Source: Escherichia phage JS98
Reading direction: 5' to 3' (one strand)
Sequence record: NC_010105.1
Length of the DNA: 64,000 nucleotides
The notes beneath the pieces were generated by a model, which saw nothing but the letters and a program-made list of their open reading frames with translations, did no database searches and was not told the origin of the DNA. Below are positions 44,016-55,303 of the stretch, piece by piece (positions within the stretch are counted from its first letter, which is position 1; the number at the start of each line of letters is the position of its first letter). Position numbers and translations under genes: made by a program.

Positions 44016-44023
44016 TATAAATA
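44016..44023 (+). promoter_or_regulatory. Late promoter TATAAATA (gene 34)
   Basis: Exact motif about 33 nt upstream of gene 34 ATG. Confidence 0.6.
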
Positions 44024-44055: not shown

Positions 44056-47000
44056 ATGGCTGATATTTTAAAACCTGCATTCCGTGCTACATCCGGACTC
44101 GATGCTGCGGGCGAGAAAGTTATCAATGTTGCCAAAGCCGATTACAATGTACTAGATGATGGCGTCAACGTTGAATTCTTTATAGATGAGAACACCATCC
44201 AGGCGTACGACGAGACGCGCGGATATAAGAAAGGGTTTGCAGTAATCCATGACCAACGTATTTGGGTTGCTCAACGTGATATCGCTGCACCAGCTGGAAC
44301 TTTTGTACCTGGTTATTGGACCGCTACCCGTACTGACCCTAAATGGATTACAGTAGCATCTCCTACGCGCCAGTTGGCTTCCGGTGAATATATTGCGGTG
44401 GACTCAGCTGCTAGCTTTACTACATTTACTCTGCCTCCTAACCCTACTGATGGCGATACCGTCGTAATCAAGGATATCGGTGGCCGTGTAGGTTATAATG
44501 AAATCAAGGTTCAATCTAGTTCTGCTCCAGGCGGCGGTAATCAGAAAATTGTTCGATTTGGTAACCAGTTCTCTGAAACTCTGATAACCAAACCTTTTTC
44601 TTATAACATGCTTATCTTTGCTAACCGTCTTTGGCATTTCTGGGAAGCAGGTAACGAAGAACGTGGTATTCGCGTAGAGCCTAATACTGCACAGTTCCAA
44701 GCTCAAGCGGGTGATAACGTTTTACGTCGTTATACTTCAGGTGCAGTAATTAAGTTTACTCTTCCTAAGTATGCGAACCAAGGTGACATGGTTAAAACCG
44801 TAGATATCGATGGTCTTGGAAGTAAGTTCCACTTAATAGTTGAAACCTTTGATGCATCGTCTTCATTAGGTAAGCCTGGCCAGCATAGCATGGAATTCCG
44901 TACCTCTGGTGATGGATTCTTTGTTTATAACTCTGTTGAAAAAATGTGGTATGTTTGGGACGGTGACCGTCAAACTCGTCTGCGTGTTATTCGTGATGAC
45001 GTAGAACTTTTGGCTAACGAAAGTATTATTGTTTTTGGTCCTAATAACACAACTCCACAAACTATTAACATCACTTTACCTACTAGCGTAGCGCAAGGCG
45101 ATACTATTAAAATCGCATTGAACTATCTTCGTAAAGCACAGACAGTAAATATTAAGGCTGCTGTAGGTGATAAAATTGCTTCTTCGGTTCAATTGCTCCA
45201 ATTCCCTAAACGTTCAGAATATCCACCAGATACTGAATGGGTGTTGAATGACGTATTGACCTTTAATGGTAATATAAGTTATACCCCGGTTATTGAACTG
45301 AGTTATATCGAAGACACCATTACAGGCGGTAAATATTGGGTTGTTGCCCAGAACGTTCCTACGGTAGAACGTGTAGATTCTAAGGATGATTTAACTCGTG
45401 CTCGTCTAGGTGTTATTGCCCTTGCGTCTCAGACCCAGGCAAACGTCGACCATGAAAATAATCCTGAAAAAGAACTTGCAATTACTCCTCAGACTTTAGC
45501 TAATCGTGTTGCCACTGAAACTCGTCGTGGTATTGCTCGTATTGCTACGACTGCTCAGGTGAACCAAGACACAACTTTCGCTTTCCAGGATGATTTGATT
45601 ATTTCTCCTAAGAAATTAAACGAACGTACTGCAACCGAAACTCGTCGTGGTGTAGCCGAAATTGCTACGCAACAGGAAACTGATGCTGGTGTTGACGATA
45701 CCACCATTATTACTCCTAAGAAGCTACAGACGCGCCAGGGCACTGAAAGTCTTTCAGGTATTGTAAAATATACCTCTACGGTGGACACCATTCCTGCGAC
45801 TGCTAGGGACACTGTAGGTACTAACGTTTACAATAAGAACGTAGGCAATTTGGTTATTTCTCCTAAAGCACTTGACCAGTATAAAGCTACTCAAGCCCAA
45901 CAAGGTACGGTATATCTTTCTACCCAGTCAGAAGTTAATACTGGACAGTCTGCTAGCGGATTTGCTAACAGTGCAGTTTCTCCTGAAACGTTGCATGCCC
46001 GTGTGGCTCTTGATACTCGTACAGGGTTAATTGAAATTGCTACGCAAGTAGAGACCGATACTGGAACAGATTATACTCGTGCGGTAACGCCTAAAACGTT
46101 AAATGATAGGAAAGCTACGGAAGGATTGACTGGTATTGCTAGAATTGCAACCCAAGCAGAATTTGATGCAGGCACGTTAGATAATGTTATTTCAACTCCG
46201 TTGAAAATTAAAACAAGACTTAATGATACTGCTAGAACTTCTGTCTCAGCAGCCAGTGGTTTGATTGAATCAGGAACCTTATGGAACCATTATACACTAG
46301 ATATTAGAGAAGCAAATGAGACCCAACGTGGTACGGCTCGTCTGGCTACCCAGACCGAAGTCAATGTTGGCACTGATGACAAAACCATCATCACTCCTTT
46401 GAAATTACACTCTAAAAAATCTACTGAAAGTTCTGAAGGTATTATTCGCGTTGCAACGAATACCGAAACCACTGCAGGAACTTCTAAAGTTCTGGCTGTA
46501 AGCCCTTCTGGTTTAAAATATGTAGTACAGTCCGAAACCACTTGGGAAGCTACTGCACTTCGTCGTGGATTTGTTAAATTGACCGAAGGTGCTTTGACTT
46601 ACTCAGGAAATAAAGTTACCGGTTCTGGTGTTAAATTTAACTCAGGTACAGGCCTTTATGAGAATGACGATACTGTTCTGAATGCAGCCAACTATCCTAA
46701 AACAGGTTATGCGGTTTCATCTTACGAGATGAATAAAACTTTACAGAACTTTTTACCTATAAATGCTACGGCTGTGAACTCCGAGAAATTGGATGGTCTG
46801 GATTCACTTCAGTTCATTCGTAGAGACGTCGACCAAACAGTTAATGGTTCTTTAACCCTGACCAAACAATTGAACCTGGCGGCTCCTCTGGTGTCTTCTA
46901 GTACTGCTAATATTACCGGCAACACTATTTTAGGTTCTCTGGAAGTAACCGGGAATTCTACTTTTAAAAATGATGTATCTGTTAGCTCAGGTAAATCTAT

Positions 47001-48105
47001 TAAATTTGTAGGACCACAGTCAGGTGCCGGTACTTGGAACTCTCAAGGCGATACTTTAGCTCCGATTTTTGCCGAGATAAATTCGACCCCGGATGCCAAG
47101 TTCCATCCTATTGTTAAACAACGTTTAGGGCAAGGTACATTCTCTTTAGGCACTGTAAACGATGGAACTCGTGATTTTAAAATACATTATCTTCCATCGC
47201 CGGGTTCTTTAGAATCTTCCTACTGGACCTTTAATACGACTGGTGACTTTGCTGTTAATAGTGGTTCCATTAGTATTTCTAAGAATGCTAATATCACAGG
47301 TATAACCACTTCTAACGGTGTTTCTACAACCACACTAAATGCTTCTGCTCTGTCTTCATTGCAAAACGTAACTACTTCAGGTACTATCGTTTCTACAGGG
47401 CAAGTATCGGCAAACAATGGTTTGGTTGCTCAAAAATACGTCCGCTCTGTTGGTGTTAAACCTACATTAGCATCCCAGGCCCCTACTGCAGAAACAGTTG
47501 GCTTCTGGTCTGTCGATATCAATGATTCGGCTACATTTAACCTGTTCCCAGGTTATTGGACGATGAAAACTAAACGTCAGGTTAATATCGATACGGTCCA
47601 AACTAAACCTGCAGGTGTTTCTGATGAGATATGGAATGCTTCTGGTTGGTTGACAGAAACGGGTGCATTTAGTTCCCCGGCTATTCGTTATCGTAACGAA
47701 GACGGTAGTTTTGGTGACGAAGTTCTCGGTACATCAGGTCAGAAATTACGTGGTACTTGGTTTGATTATTCTGTTCGTGATAAGGAAGTTAAATATCCTG
47801 GTACGTTAACACAGTTTGGTAATACATTGGATTCATGTTATCAGGATTGGGTGTGCTATCCTACAGGATTGAATGGTGGTACTATTCGTTATACTCGCAC
47901 CTGGCAGAAAAATAAAAACGCATGGACTACGTTCTCTATGGTCTATACCGCAGATAACCCTCCTTCTGCGGAAGAGGTTGGTGCATTGCCTGCTGATAAC
48001 GCTACAATGGGTAACATTACAATCCTTGATTGGTTACGTATTGGTAACGTTCGCATTATTCCTGACCCAGTAACCAAATCCGTTAAGTTTGAGTGGATTG
48101 AATAA
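44056..48105 (+). CDS. 34: Long tail fibre proximal subunit gp34
   Basis: 1349 aa; N-terminus resembles T4 gp34; repetitive beta-rich sequence. Confidence 0.88.
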   Translation: MADILKPAFRATSGLDAAGEKVINVAKADYNVLDDGVNVEFFIDENTIQAYDETRGYKKGFAVIHDQRIWVAQRDIAAPAGTFVPGYWTATRTDPKWITVASPTRQLASGEYIAVDSAASFTTFTLPPNPTDGDTVVIKDIGGRVGYNEIKVQSSSAPGGGNQKIVRFGNQFSETLITKPFSYNMLIFANRLWHFWEAGNEERGIRVEPNTAQFQAQAGDNVLRRYTSGAVIKFTLPKYANQGDMVKTVDIDGLGSKFHLIVETFDASSSLGKPGQHSMEFRTSGDGFFVYNSVEKMWYVWDGDRQTRLRVIRDDVELLANESIIVFGPNNTTPQTINITLPTSVAQGDTIKIALNYLRKAQTVNIKAAVGDKIASSVQLLQFPKRSEYPPDTEWVLNDVLTFNGNISYTPVIELSYIEDTITGGKYWVVAQNVPTVERVDSKDDLTRARLGVIALASQTQANVDHENNPEKELAITPQTLANRVATETRRGIARIATTAQVNQDTTFAFQDDLIISPKKLNERTATETRRGVAEIATQQETDAGVDDTTIITPKKLQTRQGTESLSGIVKYTSTVDTIPATARDTVGTNVYNKNVGNLVISPKALDQYKATQAQQGTVYLSTQSEVNTGQSASGFANSAVSPETLHARVALDTRTGLIEIATQVETDTGTDYTRAVTPKTLNDRKATEGLTGIARIATQAEFDAGTLDNVISTPLKIKTRLNDTARTSVSAASGLIESGTLWNHYTLDIREANETQRGTARLATQTEVNVGTDDKTIITPLKLHSKKSTESSEGIIRVATNTETTAGTSKVLAVSPSGLKYVVQSETTWEATALRRGFVKLTEGALTYSGNKVTGSGVKFNSGTGLYENDDTVLNAANYPKTGYAVSSYEMNKTLQNFLPINATAVNSEKLDGLDSLQFIRRDVDQTVNGSLTLTKQLNLAAPLVSSSTANITGNTILGSLEVTGNSTFKNDVSVSSGKSIKFVGPQSGAGTWNSQGDTLAPIFAEINSTPDAKFHPIVKQRLGQGTFSLGTVNDGTRDFKIHYLPSPGSLESSYWTFNTTGDFAVNSGSISISKNANITGITTSNGVSTTTLNASALSSLQNVTTSGTIVSTGQVSANNGLVAQKYVRSVGVKPTLASQAPTAETVGFWSVDINDSATFNLFPGYWTMKTKRQVNIDTVQTKPAGVSDEIWNASGWLTETGAFSSPAIRYRNEDGSFGDEVLGTSGQKLRGTWFDYSVRDKEVKYPGTLTQFGNTLDSCYQDWVCYPTGLNGGTIRYTRTWQKNKNAWTTFSMVYTADNPPSAEEVGALPADNATMGNITILDWLRIGNVRIIPDPVTKSVKFEWIE

Positions 48106-48113
48106 GAGGTATT

Positions 48114-49235
48114 ATGGAAAGATTTATGGCAGAATTTGGACAAGGATATGTCCAGGTTCCTACATTATCTGAAAACAATGCTGTAAGGTATAAACTTAGT
48201 ATAGCTGGTAGTTGTACTAAGTCTACTAAAAAAGCGTATGTTAAATTTCAAGATGGGGACTTCGGTCCCCAGAATTTTCAAAATGGACTAAACCTTATAG
48301 AAATTGATGTTAGTGCCGAACCTAAAGTGGTGGCTAACAAAACTTATAGCTTTACAAAAGATTTTGATGTTATCTCTGAAGCTTTTATTACTTACATAAG
48401 TTCAATACCGGCCAATAGAATAGTTTGTTTAGTATCTTCCGGTAGATTAAATGCTTCACAAAATCTTATTGATTGGTTCCGTGCAGCAGGAAGTACTGCA
48501 TTTCCATCTAAGTGGCTAATAGACCGCTTCGAGCCGTCTTATTCAGCTTTTTACGTGTCCGGTAGAAATACTATAGTGATGGAACACGTCCTTTATAATG
48601 ATGGGGTGCTTGTTGAAGATGTTTCTACACCATTAGAAGTCGTTTTTGACGATATCAGTGATGTAGGCGGGACCGGGTATCCTATAAGAATAGTAGAAGA
48701 TGAAAACACTTATCTAAGTAATGGTGGAGAAGAAATAAAACGTTTCCCTACCGAATCTCCTACTACTCCTTGCGCCGATTATAACATGAAGCCTGGGGAA
48801 TTCTTTTATCTTAAATTCCAAATGATGTGTGACCAGGAATTAAAAGATTTAGGGACCTCTCAGATGTCTGTTAGATTTTTTAATGCCTCAGGTGCTTTAA
48901 CAGGGTCGGTTAATATGGAAGTTCCACCTAATGTCCCTGCTGGGTCTTGGATGACTTTTGAGCGGGTAATTGAAGTTCCTGCTAATACTGAAACATTTAC
49001 ATTGTATGCAAGAAAAACAGTGGCCGATGGAGTTGGCGGTGTACGTAATGTGATGTTCGGGGAAGTATCAGAGCCAGAATCTCAACCTAAATCGGCCGAA
49101 TTTGGTGTAAATGGTATTCGTATGAATTTCGGTACCGAAACTAAGAATATGGGTACTACCATAGCCCAGTTATACGATAAAACAGGTACTAAACCAGGAC
49201 AGGTTTGGGTGTCTGAATTTAGAGAAAAATATTAA
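48114..49235 (+). CDS. 35: Long tail fibre hinge connector gp35
   Basis: 373 aa; T4 order 34-35-36-37. Confidence 0.8.
   Translation: MERFMAEFGQGYVQVPTLSENNAVRYKLSIAGSCTKSTKKAYVKFQDGDFGPQNFQNGLNLIEIDVSAEPKVVANKTYSFTKDFDVISEAFITYISSIPANRIVCLVSSGRLNASQNLIDWFRAAGSTAFPSKWLIDRFEPSYSAFYVSGRNTIVMEHVLYNDGVLVEDVSTPLEVVFDDISDVGGTGYPIRIVEDENTYLSNGGEEIKRFPTESPTTPCADYNMKPGEFFYLKFQMMCDQELKDLGTSQMSVRFFNASGALTGSVNMEVPPNVPAGSWMTFERVIEVPANTETFTLYARKTVADGVGGVRNVMFGEVSEPESQPKSAEFGVNGIRMNFGTETKNMGTTIAQLYDKTGTKPGQVWVSEFREKY
48254..48269 (+). other. GC-rich hairpin GGGGAC-TTCG-GTCCCC inside gene 35 coding sequence
   Basis: Perfect 6 bp stem with UUCG loop encoding DGDFGPQ, followed by AGAATTTTC. Confidence 0.3.
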
Positions 49236-49257
49236 GGAACCTTCGGGTTCCTTTTTC
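49236..49257 (+). terminator. Intrinsic terminator GGAACC-TTCG-GGTTCC + TTTTT after gene 35
   Basis: Perfect stem, UUCG loop, T5 tract. Confidence 0.7.
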
Positions 49258-49270
49258 GTTTTCTACAGCC

Positions 49271-49278
49271 ATAAATAT
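49271..49278 (+). promoter_or_regulatory. Possible late promoter (CATAAATA) for genes 36-37
   Basis: One mismatch to TATAAATA, about 33 nt upstream of gene 36. Confidence 0.35.
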
Positions 49279-49310
49279 ATAAAAGGCTATAACTCCCAAA
49301 GGAAACTCAA

Positions 49311-49958
49311 ATGGCAGATTTAAAATTAGGTTCTACAGCAGGAGGTTCGGTATTATGGCACCAAGGTAATTTCCCCTTAACGCCTGTATCAAATGACCTT
49401 CTTTACAAAACGTATAAAGTTTACACCGAGTATAATAAACCTCAAGCAGTTGATAACGATTTCGTTTCAAAAGCTAATGGTGGTAATTATAAGAACAACG
49501 TGTATTTTGAAAAAGGTTTGACCTTTAATGATACTAATGGATATGGTATTAAATTAGGAGCAAGAACCGGCGGAGCCCCTTTCACAGCTTCTTTCCGTAT
49601 TAAAGGTGCTTTTGGATATGAAACGGAAGATGGTACTCCGTTTATGATATTTGACCCAAATACAACAGTTGGTGCTAAACGTCTTACTGTAATGGGTGAT
49701 TCGTTATTCCGTCAAGTTTATGATGAATCAGGCCGCGTATTCAGCCCAGGCAACACCCCTACTAAAGCTCAAGTTGGATTGTCATTAGTAGATAACGCAA
49801 AACAGGTCCAAATAAATAATACTAATATGCAAACAATGACTGGGGTACTTGCGGCTCCTAACTTCATTTCATTAAATCCGGCCTCTGACGCAGGACATGT
49901 TCCGCGTTTCGACCAGATTGTTATTAAAGATTCTATCCAAGATTTTGGTTATTATTAA
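49311..49958 (+). CDS. 36: Long tail fibre hinge connector distal gp36
   Basis: 215 aa; T4 position. Confidence 0.8.
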   Translation: MADLKLGSTAGGSVLWHQGNFPLTPVSNDLLYKTYKVYTEYNKPQAVDNDFVSKANGGNYKNNVYFEKGLTFNDTNGYGIKLGARTGGAPFTASFRIKGAFGYETEDGTPFMIFDPNTTVGAKRLTVMGDSLFRQVYDESGRVFSPGNTPTKAQVGLSLVDNAKQVQINNTNMQTMTGVLAAPNFISLNPASDAGHVPRFDQIVIKDSIQDFGYY

Positions 49959-49966
49959 GAGGCATT

Positions 49967-52900
49967 ATGGCTACTTTAAAACAGATACAATTTAAAAGAA
50001 GTAAAGTAGCTGGTGTACGTCCTACGCCAGCGCAGTTGGCTGAAGGCGAGCTGGCTATTAACTTAAAAGACCGTTTGTTATTTACCAAAGATGACACTGG
50101 AGCGATTATCGACCTTGGCTTTGCTAAAGGTGGTAATATTGATGGTAATGTTATTCATAACGGTAATTACAATCAAACTGGTGATTATACTCTTAACGGT
50201 GTATTTACTCAAATTGGTGATTTCAATCTCAATGGCATTGCTCGTGTAACTCGTGACATCATTGCAGCCGGGCAGATAATGACCCACGGTGGAGAACTTA
50301 TTTCTAAGAGTGCCTCAACTTCTCACCTTCGTTTCTTTGATGGCAATGACCGTGAACGTGGTATTATCTTTTCTCCTAATAACGCAGGAGCAACCAACCA
50401 AGTAGTTAATATTCGCGTACAAGATTATTCTACCGCAAGCGAAAGCACTTATGCATTTTCAGGCAATGGTTTGTTCACTTCACCTGAAGTATCAGCATGG
50501 AAATCTATTTCGTCTCCACAAGTTCTGACCGATAAAGTTATTACAAATGGGAAGAAGACGGGCGATTATGATATCTATTCATTAGCAAATAACACTCCAT
50601 TTGAAGAAGGCGAAACGGCTATTAACCACCTCCGTGTTATGCGAAATGCTGTAGGAGCAGGTATTTTCCACGAAGTTAATGTTAATGACGGAATAACCTG
50701 GTATTCCGGAGATGGCTTAGACACTTATCTTTGGTCGTTTAACTGGGCCGGTGGATTGAAAGCCGGTCATTCTATTTCTGTAGGTCTTCCAGGCGGTTCT
50801 AAAGGATATTCTGAATTAGGAACAGCTTCAATTGCCCTCGGTGATAATGATACCGGATTTAAATGGCATCAAGATGGGTATTTCTTTAGCGTTAATAACG
50901 GCACAAAAACTTTCCTTTCTGGCCCGGCGGAAACCACCAGTCTTAGAAAAATGGTTATGGGTTATTCTGTAAACGGTGCCGATTTAACCACTCCTCCGGT
51001 GGAAAACTATGCTTTGGCTACTGTTGTCACTTATCATGATAATAACGCATATGGTGATGGTCAAACTCTTTTAGGATATTATCAAGGTGGAAATTATCAC
51101 CACTATTTCCGTGGTAAAGGTACTACAAACGTTAATACCGCTGGCGGTTTGTTAGTTACTCCTGGTAATATTGATGTTGTTGGTGGTTCAGTTAATATTG
51201 ATGGTCGCAACAACGCTTCGACTCTTTTGTTCAGAGGAAATACAACAGGAAATAGTTCAGTTGATAATATGACTATCAGCGTTTGGGGTAACACTTTTAC
51301 TAATGTTGCCGGCGACCGTAAAAACGTAATGGAAATATCTGATGACGTCGGTTGGATGCATTATATTCAGCGCAAAACCGATGGCAAAGTTGAAGCCCAT
51401 TTAAACGGTACCTTAGGTGTAAATGAAAGTATAAATGTCGGTAAGGAAGTTAATGTCTCCGGTACTATTGCAGGTAATGCTGTAAACGCTCTTAGAATTT
51501 GGAACGACGATTATGGTGCTATTTTCCGCCGTTCAGAAACAAGTCTTCATATTATTCCAACAGAATTTGGTCAAGGTAAAACAGGCGATATTGGTTACCT
51601 TCGTCCTTTAAGTATAGATTTGAGCAACGGTAAGGTTGTTATTCCTGACCTAGATTTGAGCTATGCTTCTTTTGCAGCTAACGGTTATATTAAATTTGGT
51701 GGTCATGGTGCGGGCGCAGGCGGTTACGATATACAGTATTCACAAGCAGCTCCTATTTTCCAAGAAATTGACGATGACGCAGTAAGTAAATATTATCCTA
51801 TTGTTAAGCAGAAATTCTTACAAGGAAAAGCTGTTTGGTCTTTAGGTACTGAAATTAATTCCGGGACTTTTGTTTTGCATCATATAAAAGAAGACGGGAC
51901 CCAGGCTCATACCTCAAGATTTAATGCTGATGGTACAGTTAACTTCCCCGATAACGTGCAGGTTGGTGGTGGTGAAGCTACTATTGCTCGAAACGGTAAT
52001 ATCTGGTCCGATATTTGGAAAACGTTTACTTCAGCAGGCGATGTAACTAATATTCGCGATGCTATTGCCTCCCGTGTGGCCAAAGAAGGTGATACGATGA
52101 CCGGCCGCTTAACTCTTAATGCAAACTCGGATGCTATTGTTATTAACAGTGCTGCAACCGAATCTGGTTATGTGAAAGGACAAAAAGCTGGTGTTGATAA
52201 CTGGTATGTAGGCAATGGCGGCGCTGATAACGCCCTATCGTTTTATAGTTTCCGAACTAATTCAGGCGTTAATATTCATAATAGTGGGGAAATTGCTTTA
52301 GCTCCTCAAGGGTCGGATACTTTTTATTTTAATAGGGACCGTCTTTATATAAAGGGTTCACAATGGGCTGCACACCAGGCTGGCGATTGGGGAAACCAAT
52401 GGAAGCAAGAAGCCCCTGTGTTTGTAGATTTTGGTAATGTTGGTAATGATAGTTATTATCCGATTATCAAAGGAAAATCTGGTATTACTAACGAAGGATT
52501 CGTATCCGGTGTAGATTTTGGTATGCGCCGCATCACTAATACATGGGCGCAAGGTATTATTCGTGTAGGTAACCAGGAAAACGGTTCCGACCCGCAAGCT
52601 ATCTATGAATTCCACTCTAATGGTACTTTTTATGCTCCAAGCTTACTTAAGAGCAACAGAGTATCGGCTGGCGGTGGAGACCCTGTATGGGGTGGACCGT
52701 GTATTGTTATCGGCGATAATGACACAGGTCTAGTTTGGGAAGCAGATGGTATTTTCAACGCATATGCAAACGGCCAAGGCGTATTCAGTTTTAGAGCTGG
52801 TCTCGCACAAACGTTCTTTAACGTAGCGTTACACTGTAACGCCGGGATGTATGTTCGTGATAACATCGATGTTAACGACGTTTATATTCGTTCTGATATT

Positions 52901-53209
52901 CGTTGTAAGTCGGAAATTAAGCTTATAGAGAATGCCCAAGAGAAATCTAAACTCTTAGGTGGTTATACTTATCTGCTTAAAAACTCTGTCACAGATGAAG
53001 TTAAACCATCTGCAGGTTTAATTGCTCAGGAAGTTCAAGAAGTATTGCCTGAACTTGTGACTGAAGATAAAGAGACCGGCTTACTTCGTTTAAACTATAA
53101 CGGTATTATCGGTTTAAATACTGCTACTATCAACGAGCATACTGATGAAATCAAGGAATTGAAATCTGAAATTGCTGAGTTGAAAGCATTAATTAAATCA
53201 TTATTATAA
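49967..53209 (+). CDS. 37: Long tail fibre distal subunit gp37 with C-terminal intramolecular-chaperone-like domain
   Basis: 1080 aa; C-terminal ...[14 protein letters not shown]...GGYTYLLKN...[15 protein letters not shown]... resembles S74-type auto-chaperone domains. Confidence 0.85.
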
Positions 53210-53212
53210 GAA

Positions 53213-53228
53213 AGGGCCCTCGGGCCCT
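53213..53228 (+). other. Hairpin AGGGCC-CTCG-GGCCCT between genes 37 and 38, immediately 5' of the gene 38 SD
   Basis: Perfect stem; followed by GGAGGTTTTT ATG. Confidence 0.45.
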
Positions 53229-53238
53229 GGAGGTTTTT

Positions 53239-54027
53239 ATGGCAGTAGTAGGAATTCCCGGTTGGATTGGAACATCAGCAGTGGCTGAAACAGGTCAACG
53301 TTGGATGACAGCAGCTTCTAGAGAATTGCGTCTTGGTAACCCATCTTGGATGTCGCAATTTGCTGGTCGGTCCCGTGAGATTATTCACACCCTTGGCGCA
53401 GACCACAACTTTAACGGGCAATGGTTTAGAGACCGTTGTTTTGAAGCCGGTGCCGCACCTATTGTGTTTAATATCACCGGTGATTTAGTATCTTATACTA
53501 AAGATGTTCCATTGTTCTTTATGTACGGTGATACCCCTAATGAATACGTTACTTTGAATATTCACGGCGGGGTCCATATGTGGGGACGTGGTGGTAACGG
53601 TGGGACCCGTGTTTGGATAGCAGGTACAAATGGTGGTGATGTAATTCAAAACGACATTGGAGGCCGACTCCGTATCTGGAACTATGGCGTTATAGCTTCA
53701 GGTGGTGGCGGCGGCGCCGGATGTGCTTCAAATAACTCTTGGCTTGAAGCAGGTACAGCCGGTGGCGGCGGTGGTAGACCATATGGATTAGGTGGTACTA
53801 ATGGCGCCGTAATGCCTGGCGGCAACGCTAGTTATACCGGACCAGGTGGCGGTGGTAGCTTTGGCGGACAGTGGGGTGGTGGTAATGGTGGCGACGCAGG
53901 CGGGGCTGGTGGCGGCGCTTACGGTCGAAACGTTAAATACGGCTCGCAAGGCGGAGCCGGGCGCGCGGTATTCGGAAGTTCTCCTTCATGGGGCGCTACA
54001 GGCACTATCTACGGCTCATGGTTATAG
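53239..54027 (+). CDS. 38: Receptor-recognising adhesin gp38 (T2-type, glycine-rich motifs)
   Basis: 262 aa; conserved N-terminus [11 protein letters not shown]; C-terminal half has multiple poly-Gly blocks separated by short variable segments. Confidence 0.85.
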
Positions 54028-54038
54028 TACATAAGCGC

Positions 54039-54046
54039 TATAAATA
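54039..54046 (+). promoter_or_regulatory. Late promoter TATAAATA (holin t)
   Basis: Exact motif about 20 nt upstream of the t ATG. Confidence 0.6.
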
Positions 54047-54064
54047 TCTTTAAAGGAGAAAAGT

Positions 54065-54718
54065 ATGGAACCAAAAGTAGGAATATCAATACCCGACCTA
54101 CTTTTTGGACTTCTTGATAGAATTTTTAAAGATAATGCGACCGGGAAAGTTGTTTTTTCCCGGGTACTAGTTATTGTTCTATTATTTTTAATGGCGGTAA
54201 TCTGGTATAAAGGTGATGCACTTTTAGATGCGTACAGGGATGCTTCATATGCCTCATACACTGAAATGATAAGGCAAGACCAGGATAACAGATTTAAAAT
54301 TGCAGCTATCGAGCAAATCCAGATAGTCCACTCGTCAAGTGGAGCAGACTTTACAGCAATATATTCTTTTAGGCCAACCAACCTTAACTACTTTGTGGAT
54401 ATGGTGGGATATGAGGGGATATTGCCTGATACAGTCGACGAAAAAAATTTAGGTGGGTTTCCAATAGATAAAACTTCGGCGGAATATTTGGCGGGGGTTA
54501 ATGGTAATTATTTTGAATCCAGTACGGAATCTGTATTCTTACCAACAAAGAAAAAAAGCAGCTTCGCATATATGTTCAGCTGCCCGTTCTTTAATTTGGA
54601 AAACGTTTATGCAGGCACAGTCTCGCTGTACTGGTATAAGCAAAAACCTAACCTTGGTTTTGATAGGCTTTCTGCTATGTGTGGACAAGCAGGTCGTACG
54701 CTTGGGCGTACACGTTAG
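54065..54718 (+). CDS. t: Holin T
   Basis: 217 aa; matches recalled T4 holin T (LDRIFKDNATGKV, single N-terminal TM, PTKK). Confidence 0.9.
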   Translation: MEPKVGISIPDLLFGLLDRIFKDNATGKVVFSRVLVIVLLFLMAVIWYKGDALLDAYRDASYASYTEMIRQDQDNRFKIAAIEQIQIVHSSSGADFTAIYSFRPTNLNYFVDMVGYEGILPDTVDEKNLGGFPIDKTSAEYLAGVNGNYFESSTESVFLPTKKKSSFAYMFSCPFFNLENVYAGTVSLYWYKQKPNLGFDRLSAMCGQAGRTLGRTR

Positions 54719-54990
54719 AATCCGGAGGTATACATCATAAGATAACGGTGTATATCTTCGAATCCTTCGTTAAATTGTTCAATAATTTGTTCAATTTCAT
54801 CTTCAGATAAACTTTTAAACAACTTGTTAAACGATACATTGTTTAACTCATTCCCATTCTCATTTCTCAATCCCAACTCATTCAAAAACGCGATAAACAC
54901 ATCGCGCTTCATCGTAATATCTTCCCGGTCGGTTTTAATCAAAATTGAAGTTATAGTAACAATTTCAGAAACGATTTCAAATTTAGTCAT
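54715..54990 (-). CDS. asiA: Anti-sigma70 factor AsiA
   Basis: Matches recalled T4 AsiA (ITSILIK..REDI, FIAFLNE, EQFNEGFE..YRYL.MYT); ATG at 54990 (track start 55005 is TTG). Confidence 0.85.
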   Translation of the reverse strand: MTKFEIVSEIVTITSILIKTDREDITMKRDVFIAFLNELGLRNENGNELNNVSFNKLFKSLSEDEIEQIIEQFNEGFEDIHRYLMMYTSGF

Positions 54991-55040
54991 TTTTAATTTA
55001 CTCAAGTATTCAATAAGACATTCAATTATTCAGTAAGGGT

Positions 55041-55069
55041 ATTATACTATTATTCCTCTGGGTTGTACA
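55041..55069 (-). promoter_or_regulatory. Candidate early promoter of asiA (TGTACA-N17-TATAAT)
   Basis: rc motif with consensus -10 but imperfect -35. Confidence 0.35.
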
Positions 55070-55214
55070 CATGATTTTCCATCTGTACAACATATTCCTG
55101 ATACATCTGTTCAACTGGTTCCTGGAACTTAAAATCTGCTCCAAGGAATTCCTCAAAGCAAGACTGTTCGCGTGTACGCTGGCCAGTAATGGTGTTCTCT
55201 AAGTTATGACTCAT
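55050..55214 (-). CDS. Small protein (asiA.1 position)
   Basis: Manually read 54 aa ORF MSHNLENTITGQRTREQSCFEEFLGADFKFQEPVEQMYQEYVVQMENHVYNPEE. Confidence 0.4.
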   Translation of the reverse strand: MSHNLENTITGQRTREQSCFEEFLGADFKFQEPVEQMYQEYVVQMENHVYNPEE

Positions 55215-55303
55215 AATGATTCCCCTTGTGCTTCTGCTTACGTTTGGACTGCATTTCAGTTTTCTTCTTATCCTTATGGACAGACGCCTTATTGAAATCG
55301 TGC

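Follow-up and report, generated by a model that had tools for sequence, protein, structure and literature searches.

The distal part of the long tail fibre locus of Escherichia phage JS98 was analysed in a 64,000-nucleotide stretch of its genome (NC_010105.1), hereafter called the window, along which all positions are counted. This part of the locus comprises gene 37, encoding the precursor of the long tail fibre distal subunit (gp37, 1080 amino acids), and gene 38, encoding a protein of 262 amino acids (gp38), which are separated by a spacer of 29 nucleotides. Together they very probably make up a module of the T2/T6/S16 type known from T-even phages, which forms the distal tip of the long tail fibre and in which gp38 is the adhesin at the fibre tip. 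A gp37 with a C-terminal S74-type chaperone domain lies directly upstream of gp38, and the same is true of the 15 phages compared. The features of the module are not due to chance: E-values go down to 1e-81, and homologues are present in more than 750 phage records. The coordinates of all features are given in Table 1.

The gp37 protein is covered over its full length by PHROG 1699, the long tail fibre distal subunit family (E=0). The Pfam domain Gp34_trimer occupies residues 447-550, and the regions upstream of the last 105 residues match trimeric gp34 and gp37 fibre structures. These last 105 residues form the S74 domain, in which Peptidase_S74 (PF13884) is matched at residues 976-1032 along its full model (positions 1-58) with 46.8 bits and E=3.6e-12, above the curated Pfam cut-off of 22 bits. 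Residues 909-1079 align to gp37 of phage S16 in the solved gp37-gp38 tip complex (6F45_A, E=5.5e-30). A phmmer search for other solved chaperone-domain structures recovered S16 gp37 and, weakly, the autocleaving domain of MYRF, and did not reach the endosialidase and T5 fibre domains. In the MYRF entry (7dc3, a Ser-to-Ala construct) the sequence ADLRAK falls on six residues of gp37 at its putative cleavage site, with the mutated Ser and the Lys of MYRF placed over the putative catalytic pair (E=0.013).

These six residues, SDIRCK (976-981), start the S74 domain right after the sequence DVYIR and contain a Ser-Lys dyad, Ser976 and Lys981, which are spaced as S-x4-K and lie at the domain's N-terminal edge. 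They align residue by residue to the S16 site DLNVS^SDRRIKK, where autocleavage of S16 gp37 has been mapped; the equivalent site in T-even phages of E. coli and Yersinia is DVYIR^SD, and a role in the docking of gp38 has been assigned to DVYIR (PMC7917993). The corresponding sequences are SDIRLK in T2 and SDSRLK in T6, whose gp37 proteins are cleaved at the C-terminus and then capped by gp38 (Trojet et al., PMC3157838). The pattern VY[IV]R-SD.R.K is preserved in 14 gp37 sequences of E. coli phages compared with that of the window, including T2 and T6, while S16 gp37 preserves SD.R.K preceded by DLNVS. On the basis of the mapped S16 site and its DVYIR^SD equivalent, Ser976 and Lys981 are the predicted catalytic dyad and the cut is predicted after Arg975, which would yield a mature fibre subunit of 975 residues and a released chaperone of 105 residues.

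The gp38 protein matches PF05268 (271.3 bits, E=9e-81) and PF21721 (74.1 bits, E=9e-21), each with a cut-off of 25 bits, and PHROG 2056 (E=1e-105). Glycine accounts for 37% of residues 116-262 (147 amino acids) versus 11% of residues 1-115, and this glycine-rich C-terminal half is the reason for a local G+C peak of 0.55 at gene 38, compared with about 0.40 elsewhere. An alignment with 120 homologues revealed invariant glycine blocks, among them residues 116-121, 155-160, 175-179 and 217-218, with four variable segments between the blocks. The gp38 entries of Bp7 and vB_EcoM_RZ (P0008) run out of frame in this glycine-rich 3' part, probably because the G+C-rich repeats were sequenced or assembled wrongly.

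Two solved structures were matched by the gp38 sequence: the receptor-binding domain of phage PP01 (9v85, E=2e-74), identified as PP01 gp38 through PMC12892980, and S16 gp38 (6f45_D, E=1e-49). An AlphaFold2 model built with 64 homologues reached a mean predicted local distance difference test score (pLDDT) of 88.1 and a predicted template modelling score (pTM) of 0.80. Searched with Foldseek against the whole PDB, the model matched 9v85 (template modelling (TM) score 0.90, root-mean-square deviation 1.9 Å) and 6f45_D (TM 0.83-0.87, 2.7 Å); beyond these two adhesins, every match had E>4. At the N-terminus, Trp9, Trp22 and Trp37 align with three tryptophans of S16 gp38, the 'prongs' that dock the latter on its gp37 trimer (PMC6851490). 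Helices are predicted in this part of the model at residues 10-18, 23-29 and 38-40, and Trp9 and Trp22 are at least 90% conserved among the 64 homologues.

The genes of T2 and T4 were used as controls. T2 gp37 and gp38 gave the same Pfam domains as the proteins of the window, while T4 gp37 contains Collar and fibre-repeat domains and no S74 domain, and T4 gp38 has no Pfam match. No similarity between the gp38 of the window and that of T4 was detected by BLASTP (E=19), and the two share no Pfam family. Since both controls behaved as expected, the description of the module as T2-type and unlike T4 is correct. The initial annotation of the window had proposed the two open reading frames, an S74-like chaperone at the C-terminus of gp37, and a following adhesin gene, not a T4-type chaperone gene, whose product has a C-terminal half built of glycine motifs and short variable segments. 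The reading frames, at exactly the coordinates given there, and all the peptide strings quoted are present in the window, and the profile matches, the 6F45 alignment, the Ser-Lys dyad, the controls and the 120-homologue alignment bear out each of these assignments.

The window resembles T2 also in gene order and in the VYIR-SD.R.K site. However, T2 gp37 has 1341 amino acids, and T2 gp38 is only 48% identical, with another type of N-terminal attachment and other loops (FadL/OmpF). T4 shares the position of the locus, 36-37-38-t, and the gp37 N-terminus, but its gp37, which has Collar and needle domains at the end, contacts the receptor directly, and its gp38 is an unrelated chaperone of 183 amino acids. 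A solved architectural model is the S16 tip complex (PDB 6F45), which consists of a trimeric gp37 tip, an autocleaved S74 domain and a monomeric gp38 with Trp prongs, a beta-helix and a polyglycine-II sandwich (PMC6851490, PMC7917993), an architecture that the gp37 and gp38 of the window are predicted to share. S16 differs in that its gp38 is 44% identical, with other loops and a shorter second hypervariable segment (HVS2), in that its cleavage site is S^S and not R^S, and in its receptor, Salmonella OmpC. The PP01 domain is the best solved match (64% identity), but differs from the window in all four loops, where 1/9, 4/15, 16/31 and 3/21 residues are identical.

By analogy with these systems, gp37 would be made as a precursor in which residues 976-1080 act as an S74-type chaperone driving trimerisation of the fibre. 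This domain would then cut itself off between Arg975 and Ser976, with Ser976 as the nucleophile and Lys981 as the base, baring a flat trimeric gp37 tip that ends in DVYIR. One gp38 monomer would dock on this tip via its N-terminal bundle of three helices, in which Trp9, Trp22 and Trp37 would serve as the prongs, while the remaining part of gp38 is predicted to form a short beta-helix with a polyglycine-II 'sandwich'. The four hypervariable loops at the far end of gp38 would bind the outer-membrane receptor reversibly and thus define the primary host range.

The relationship between the tip and the adhesin was examined in 15 phages by comparing four regions: the 70 residues with which mature gp37 would end, the chaperone domain, residues 1-47 of gp38 and its receptor-binding domain. 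In the six phages with a tip at least 83% identical to that of the window (TH40, PhAPEC2, Ec2-ASingh, Bp7, Bas38 and Bas47), the gp38 N-terminus is 98-100% identical, and the receptor-binding domain ranges from 62 to 99%. The window-type tip and the window-type gp38 N-terminus occur together in seven phages. MN01 and EAWsc9 carry the receptor-binding domain of the window (97-98%), but both their tip (38-45%) and their gp38 N-terminus (53-62%) are of JS10 type. The type of gp37 tip tracks the type of gp38 N-terminus and not that of the loops: the Spearman coefficient was 0.69 for tip versus N-terminus and 0.09-0.29 versus receptor-binding domain, figures that are descriptive only, as the phages are related and not independent samples. 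The pattern fits a conserved docking interface joined to a binding domain that can be exchanged on its own. It also agrees with a published swap in which PP01 gp38 did not work on T2 fibres until the corresponding T2 sequence had been put in place of its first 113 residues (PMC12892980). Accordingly, an attachment unit made up of gp37 tip, chaperone domain and gp38 N-terminus would move as a whole, with the loop domain exchanged independently.

The backbone of the window belongs to Dhakavirus, with 20 kb 97.5% identical to JS10 and 96.8% to MN04. Sliding-window blastn identities against JS10 and against TH40 (MT446411, Gaprivervirus), which place boundaries to within about 250 bp, revealed a mosaic in the fibre locus. 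In gp35-gp36, identity to JS10 is 98-100%, and TH40 is partly unaligned and about 75% identical where aligned. Along gp37, JS10 falls from 92% to unalignable, while TH40 rises, with values mostly of 75-94%. Over gp38, t and asiA JS10 is 65-84% identical and TH40 94-100% (about 52.2-55.2 kb), and near 55.5 kb JS10 is back at 99%, with TH40 at 88%. Because identity shifts from JS10 to TH40 along the fibre locus and back near 55.5 kb, these values indicate a TH40-like origin for a block of about 3 kb, which holds the C-terminus of gp37 together with gp38, t and asiA. Recombination probably brought this segment from a Gaprivervirus lineage resembling TH40 into the JS10-like Dhakavirus backbone. 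The block exceeds the host-range genes, as holin t and asiA are included.

The four hypervariable segments (HVS1 to HVS4) were compared among about 135 gp38 sequences, including the 120-homologue alignment. They form one allele set, which is found only in the window, TH40, PhAPEC2, EAWsc9, MN01, the 16-member cluster P0001 and Yersinia phage P8; TH44 joins the set by overall gp38 identity. Identity of the segments to gp38 proteins outside the group is 11-63%, inside a framework that is 72-100% identical. No gp38 among the sequences compared carries only some of the segments of the window, with the exception of the frameshifted deposit RZ. The allele thus moves as a single set across Dhakavirus, Gaprivervirus and Mosigvirus backbones, in phages isolated on E. 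coli and on Yersinia enterocolitica.

TH40 is the closest relative of the window in this respect, with 261 of 262 gp38 residues, the gp37 tip, the chaperone domain and the loop allele in common; it differs in residue 233 and in its backbone, and its record is unannotated. PhAPEC2, which belongs to another genus (Mosigvirus), has a gp38 93.9% identical overall; it shares the gp38 N-terminus (100%), the loop allele (receptor-binding domain 90%), the gp37 tip (89%) and the chaperone domain (97%), but has 14 substitutions in the receptor-binding domain. The gp38 proteins of EAWsc9, MN01, TH44 and Yersinia phage P8 are about 90% identical, and that of the nearest 90% cluster, P0001, is 98% identical. 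An exact-sequence look-up in public assemblies found no record of the gp38 of the window. Its Lys233 (AAA codon, positions 53935-53937) in HVS4 occurs only in the window; threonine is present in TH40, PhAPEC2, MN01, EAWsc9, P8 and P0001. This residue sits in a class of loop in which single changes can alter receptor use in relatives. Phage vB_YenM_P8 (PP693301, 4501-5283) was isolated on Yersinia enterocolitica and carries the loop allele with four substitutions in the receptor-binding domain; because of this, the receptor of the allele, or its epitope, is likely common to E. coli and Yersinia.

In relatives of JS98, receptor specificity is set by segments of gp38 (PMC3157838, PMC12032242, PMC12892980, bioRxiv 10.64898/2026.04.02.716166). 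PP01 binds OmpC of E. coli O157 via loops D and E (PMC12892980), SV76 and T2 differ by a single loop change that switches the receptor (PMC3157838), and receptor switches were obtained by gp38 swaps and by the single change Q206L, from OmpF to OmpW (bioRxiv 10.64898/2026.04.02.716166). These experiments back, by analogy, the proposal of the initial annotation that the variable segments would set receptor specificity in this phage. Its expectation that the receptor could be predicted by aligning gp38 with relatives failed, because the loop allele matches no receptor-typed reference. The typed references were taken from Table S1 of bioRxiv 10.64898/2026.04.02.716166, PMC12032242 and PMC10844046. 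Identity of the receptor-binding domain to that of the window is 68-71% in the OmpF group (Bas38, Bas46, Bas47, FL33 and fPS-2; loops 28-57%), 50% in PP01 (OmpC), 44% in S16 (OmpC), 45-46% in T6 and Bas36 (Tsx), 49% in T2 (FadL) and 43% in Bas45 and RB49 (OmpA). None of the typed OmpF, OmpC, OmpA (three allele types), Tsx or FadL references compared has any loop of the window, and in the aligned references of OmpC, OmpA, Tsx and FadL type every segment is at most 51% identical. The OmpA binders AV111, AV119, FL08, TP7, FL18 and M1 also have other loops, both in the 120-homologue alignment and by eye. A literature search found no published receptor for PhAPEC2, TH40, EAWsc9, MN01, RZ or P8, and the supplements of a study of 255 phages (bioRxiv 10.64898/2026.04.02.716166) contain no such phage, accession or loop k-mer. 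Since single loop substitutions switch the receptor, an alignment-based call is unsafe and none was made.

Several candidate receptors were weighed. Binding to OmpF, as in the nearest typed relatives (Bas38, Bas46, Bas47, FL33, fPS-2 and the RB69 group), would agree with the closest identity, the same framework and C-terminus, and loop lengths within one residue; the allele is also present in a phage of Yersinia enterocolitica, and OmpF is a known receptor of Yersinia T-even phages (PMC7917993). This possibility is raised and left open in PMC11269248. However, all four loops differ from the OmpF type (HVS1 33%, HVS2 40%, HVS3 53-57% and HVS4 28% identical), the aromatic residues of the OmpF-type HVS4 (GWGGDGWGNHLSRS) are replaced in the window, one loop residue suffices for a switch, as Q206L and the comparison of SV76 with T2 illustrate, and neither a k-mer nor an accession of the allele appears in the supplements of bioRxiv 10.64898/2026.04.02.716166. 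OmpF is therefore a tentative and somewhat unlikely choice. Somewhat more likely, though still short of probable, is binding to one of the other known gp38 receptors, OmpC, OmpA, Tsx, FadL or OmpW: most gp38 adhesins described for E. coli phages use these outer-membrane proteins (PMC12032242), lipopolysaccharide is used by a few relatives, HVS1 is equal in length to that of PP01, which binds OmpC, and 51% of HVS3 is identical to the PP01 segment. The receptor-binding domain is, however, just 43-50% identical to those of PP01, S16, T6, Bas36, T2, Bas45 and RB49, and the window has no loop in common with any of the typed references or, by eye, with AV111, AV119, FL08, TP7, FL18 and M1. It is rather unlikely that the allele recognises a receptor or epitope beyond Tsx, OmpA, OmpC, OmpF, FadL and OmpW; if it does, the Thr233Lys change of the window could move that specificity further.

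The T2/T6/S16-type tip itself has two competitors. If gp38 were merely a T4-like assembly chaperone outside the virion, gp37 would bind the receptor itself. Several GenBank records, among them those of PhAPEC2, Bp7 and T6, name the orthologue 'distal long tail fiber assembly catalyst' or 'chaperone', and a chaperone-like role of T2-type gp38 before it stays attached is mentioned in PMC7917993. This naming is a carry-over from T4. The gp38 of the window lacks similarity to T4 gp38 and has both adhesin domains that are absent from it, the S74 domain stands in gp37 instead of the Collar and needle-repeat domains of T4, the modelled fold is that of the solved PP01 and S16 adhesins, and the T4 record itself notes that the T2-type 'gp38' is unrelated and an adhesin; taken together, these points leave the chaperone-only role with hardly any credibility. 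Alternatively, the C-terminal domain of gp37 might be a non-cleaving S74 homologue retained in the mature fibre, with gp38 attached in another way, and catalysis is indeed not provable from sequence alone. However, T2 and T6, for which cleavage has been reported (PMC3157838), strictly conserve the dyad and the DVYIR strand in front of it, S16 keeps the dyad and has both a mapped cleavage site and a solved tip without the domain (PMC7917993), and the Trp prongs of gp38 are conserved, which makes retention very improbable.

No sequence feature contradicts the T2/T6/S16-type tip, yet several points weigh against it and have to be set beside the observed genes, domains, dyad, fold, mosaic and co-variation. 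Cleavage, 3:1 docking and receptor binding are extrapolated by homology from relatives with solved structures or experimental tests; for autocleavage of gp37 the homology is strong. The fold match of gp38 may not be fully independent of the sequence match, as 6F45 was perhaps part of the AlphaFold training data, and the co-variation, as stated above, is descriptive. An NCBIfam scan of gp37 and gp38 matched no profile, which is attributed to the scope of that library, and the receptor of the loop allele cannot be predicted from the sequence.

Table 1. Features of the long tail fibre locus in the JS98 window
Feature	Position	Strand	Basis or remark
gp34	44056-48105		T-even late cluster member
gp35, proximal hinge connector	48114-49235		T-even late cluster member
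gp36	49311-49958		T-even late cluster member
Gene 37, gp37 long tail fibre distal subunit precursor, 1080 aa	49967-53209	+	Open reading frame, PHROG 1699, Pfam
C-terminal end of predicted mature gp37 (70 residues, aa 906-975, up to and including DVYIR), putative gp38 docking surface	52682-52891	+	Aligns to S16 tip 6F45_A
Peptidase_S74 intramolecular chaperone domain (aa 976-1080, 105 aa)	52892-53206	+	PF13884, dyad, S16 and MYRF alignments
Predicted catalytic Ser976 codon	52892-52894	+	
Lys981 codon	52907-52909	+	
G+C-rich hairpin in gp37-gp38 spacer (AGGGCCCTCGGGCCCT)	53213-53228	+	Kept in 11 phages
Shine-Dalgarno GGAGG of gp38, directly 3' of spacer hairpin	53229-53233	+	
Gene 38, gp38 tail-fibre tip adhesin, 262 aa	53239-54027	+	Open reading frame, Pfam, PDB matches, AlphaFold2, Foldseek
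gp38 N-terminal attachment domain (aa 1-47; Trp9, Trp22, Trp37)	53239-53379	+	PF21721, S16 alignment, model helices
gp38 receptor-binding domain (aa 116-262), glycine-rich motifs and four hypervariable segments	53584-54024	+	37% Gly, invariant Gly, PP01/S16 alignment
HVS1 (aa 123-131, GTRVWIAGT)	53605-53631	+	At least 89% identity within allele group, at most 44% outside
HVS2 (aa 161-175)	53719-53763	+	At least 87% within group, at most 53% outside
HVS3 (aa 187-216)	53797-53886	+	At least 83% within group, at most 63% outside
HVS4 (aa 224-241, including Lys233)	53908-53961	+	At least 83% within group, at most 50% outside
Holin t, downstream neighbour of gp38	54065-54718	+	Pfam Phage_holin_T, E=2.4e-66
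TH40-like mosaic segment (gp37 C-terminus, gp38, holin t, asiA)	52250-55250	.	94-100% identity to TH40 (MT446411, Gaprivervirus)

The genes are arranged as gp34-gp35-gp36-gp37-gp38-t, the order of the canonical T-even late cluster; asiA and motA are encoded by the opposite strand. Exact copies of the T4 late-promoter octamer TATAAATA are confined, in this part of the window, to positions 44016-44023, just 5' of gp34, and 54039-54046, just 5' of holin t. Upstream of gp36 there is a mere near-match to the octamer (CATAAATATATAAAA, 49268-49285), located after a terminator-like hairpin at 49234-49253. The motif search found no octamer directly 5' of gp37 or gp38, which suggests that genes 36, 37 and 38 are co-transcribed. 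The gp35 protein matches the Pfam domain ILEI (interleukin-like epithelial-mesenchymal transition (EMT) inducer, PF15711) with E=1.9e-6 and 28.7 bits, compared with a curated cut-off of 27, and its orthologue in the EAWsc9 record is named 'ILEI domain-containing protein'. Antisense and alternative-frame open reading frames of 51-85 amino acids within gp37 and gp38 were regarded as by-products, especially in the G+C-rich stretch of glycine codons. An Rfam scan of the 43-58 kb region gave no match.

The hairpin in the gp37-gp38 spacer shows compensatory stem changes, which preserve base pairing, among the 11 T-even phages that keep it (GGGCC/GGCCC, GGGGC/GCCCC and GAGGGC/GCCCTC), and its loop is CUCG in the window and UUCG in most relatives. 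It presumably resembles the stable C(UUCG)G hairpins of T4 intergenic regions. A role as a terminator was considered and rejected: the hairpin is no more stable than shuffled sequences (z=-1.5), and it is followed by a ribosome-binding site and no clean T-tract. It is recorded for these reasons only as a conserved stem-loop.

The module is of a known and well-understood T-even host-recognition kind, representing the commonest architecture of the long tail fibre tip among T-even phages (PMC6851490), and a near-identical copy has already been deposited in TH40. Little is added to basic biology, as it is textbook knowledge for T2, T6 and S16 how such tips are built and assembled and what their loops do, and two crystal structures are available. 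The analysis corrects the functional annotation of a gene labelled 'assembly catalyst' in several GenBank records. It also defines a recurrent loop allele, which is carried by at least seven phages on deposit, belonging to three genera and found on two host genera. No published receptor was found for this allele, a gap that concerns receptor prediction from genomes as well as phage cocktail design. Finally, the boundary between the attachment unit and the loop unit indicates where to cut chimeras for re-targeting phages.

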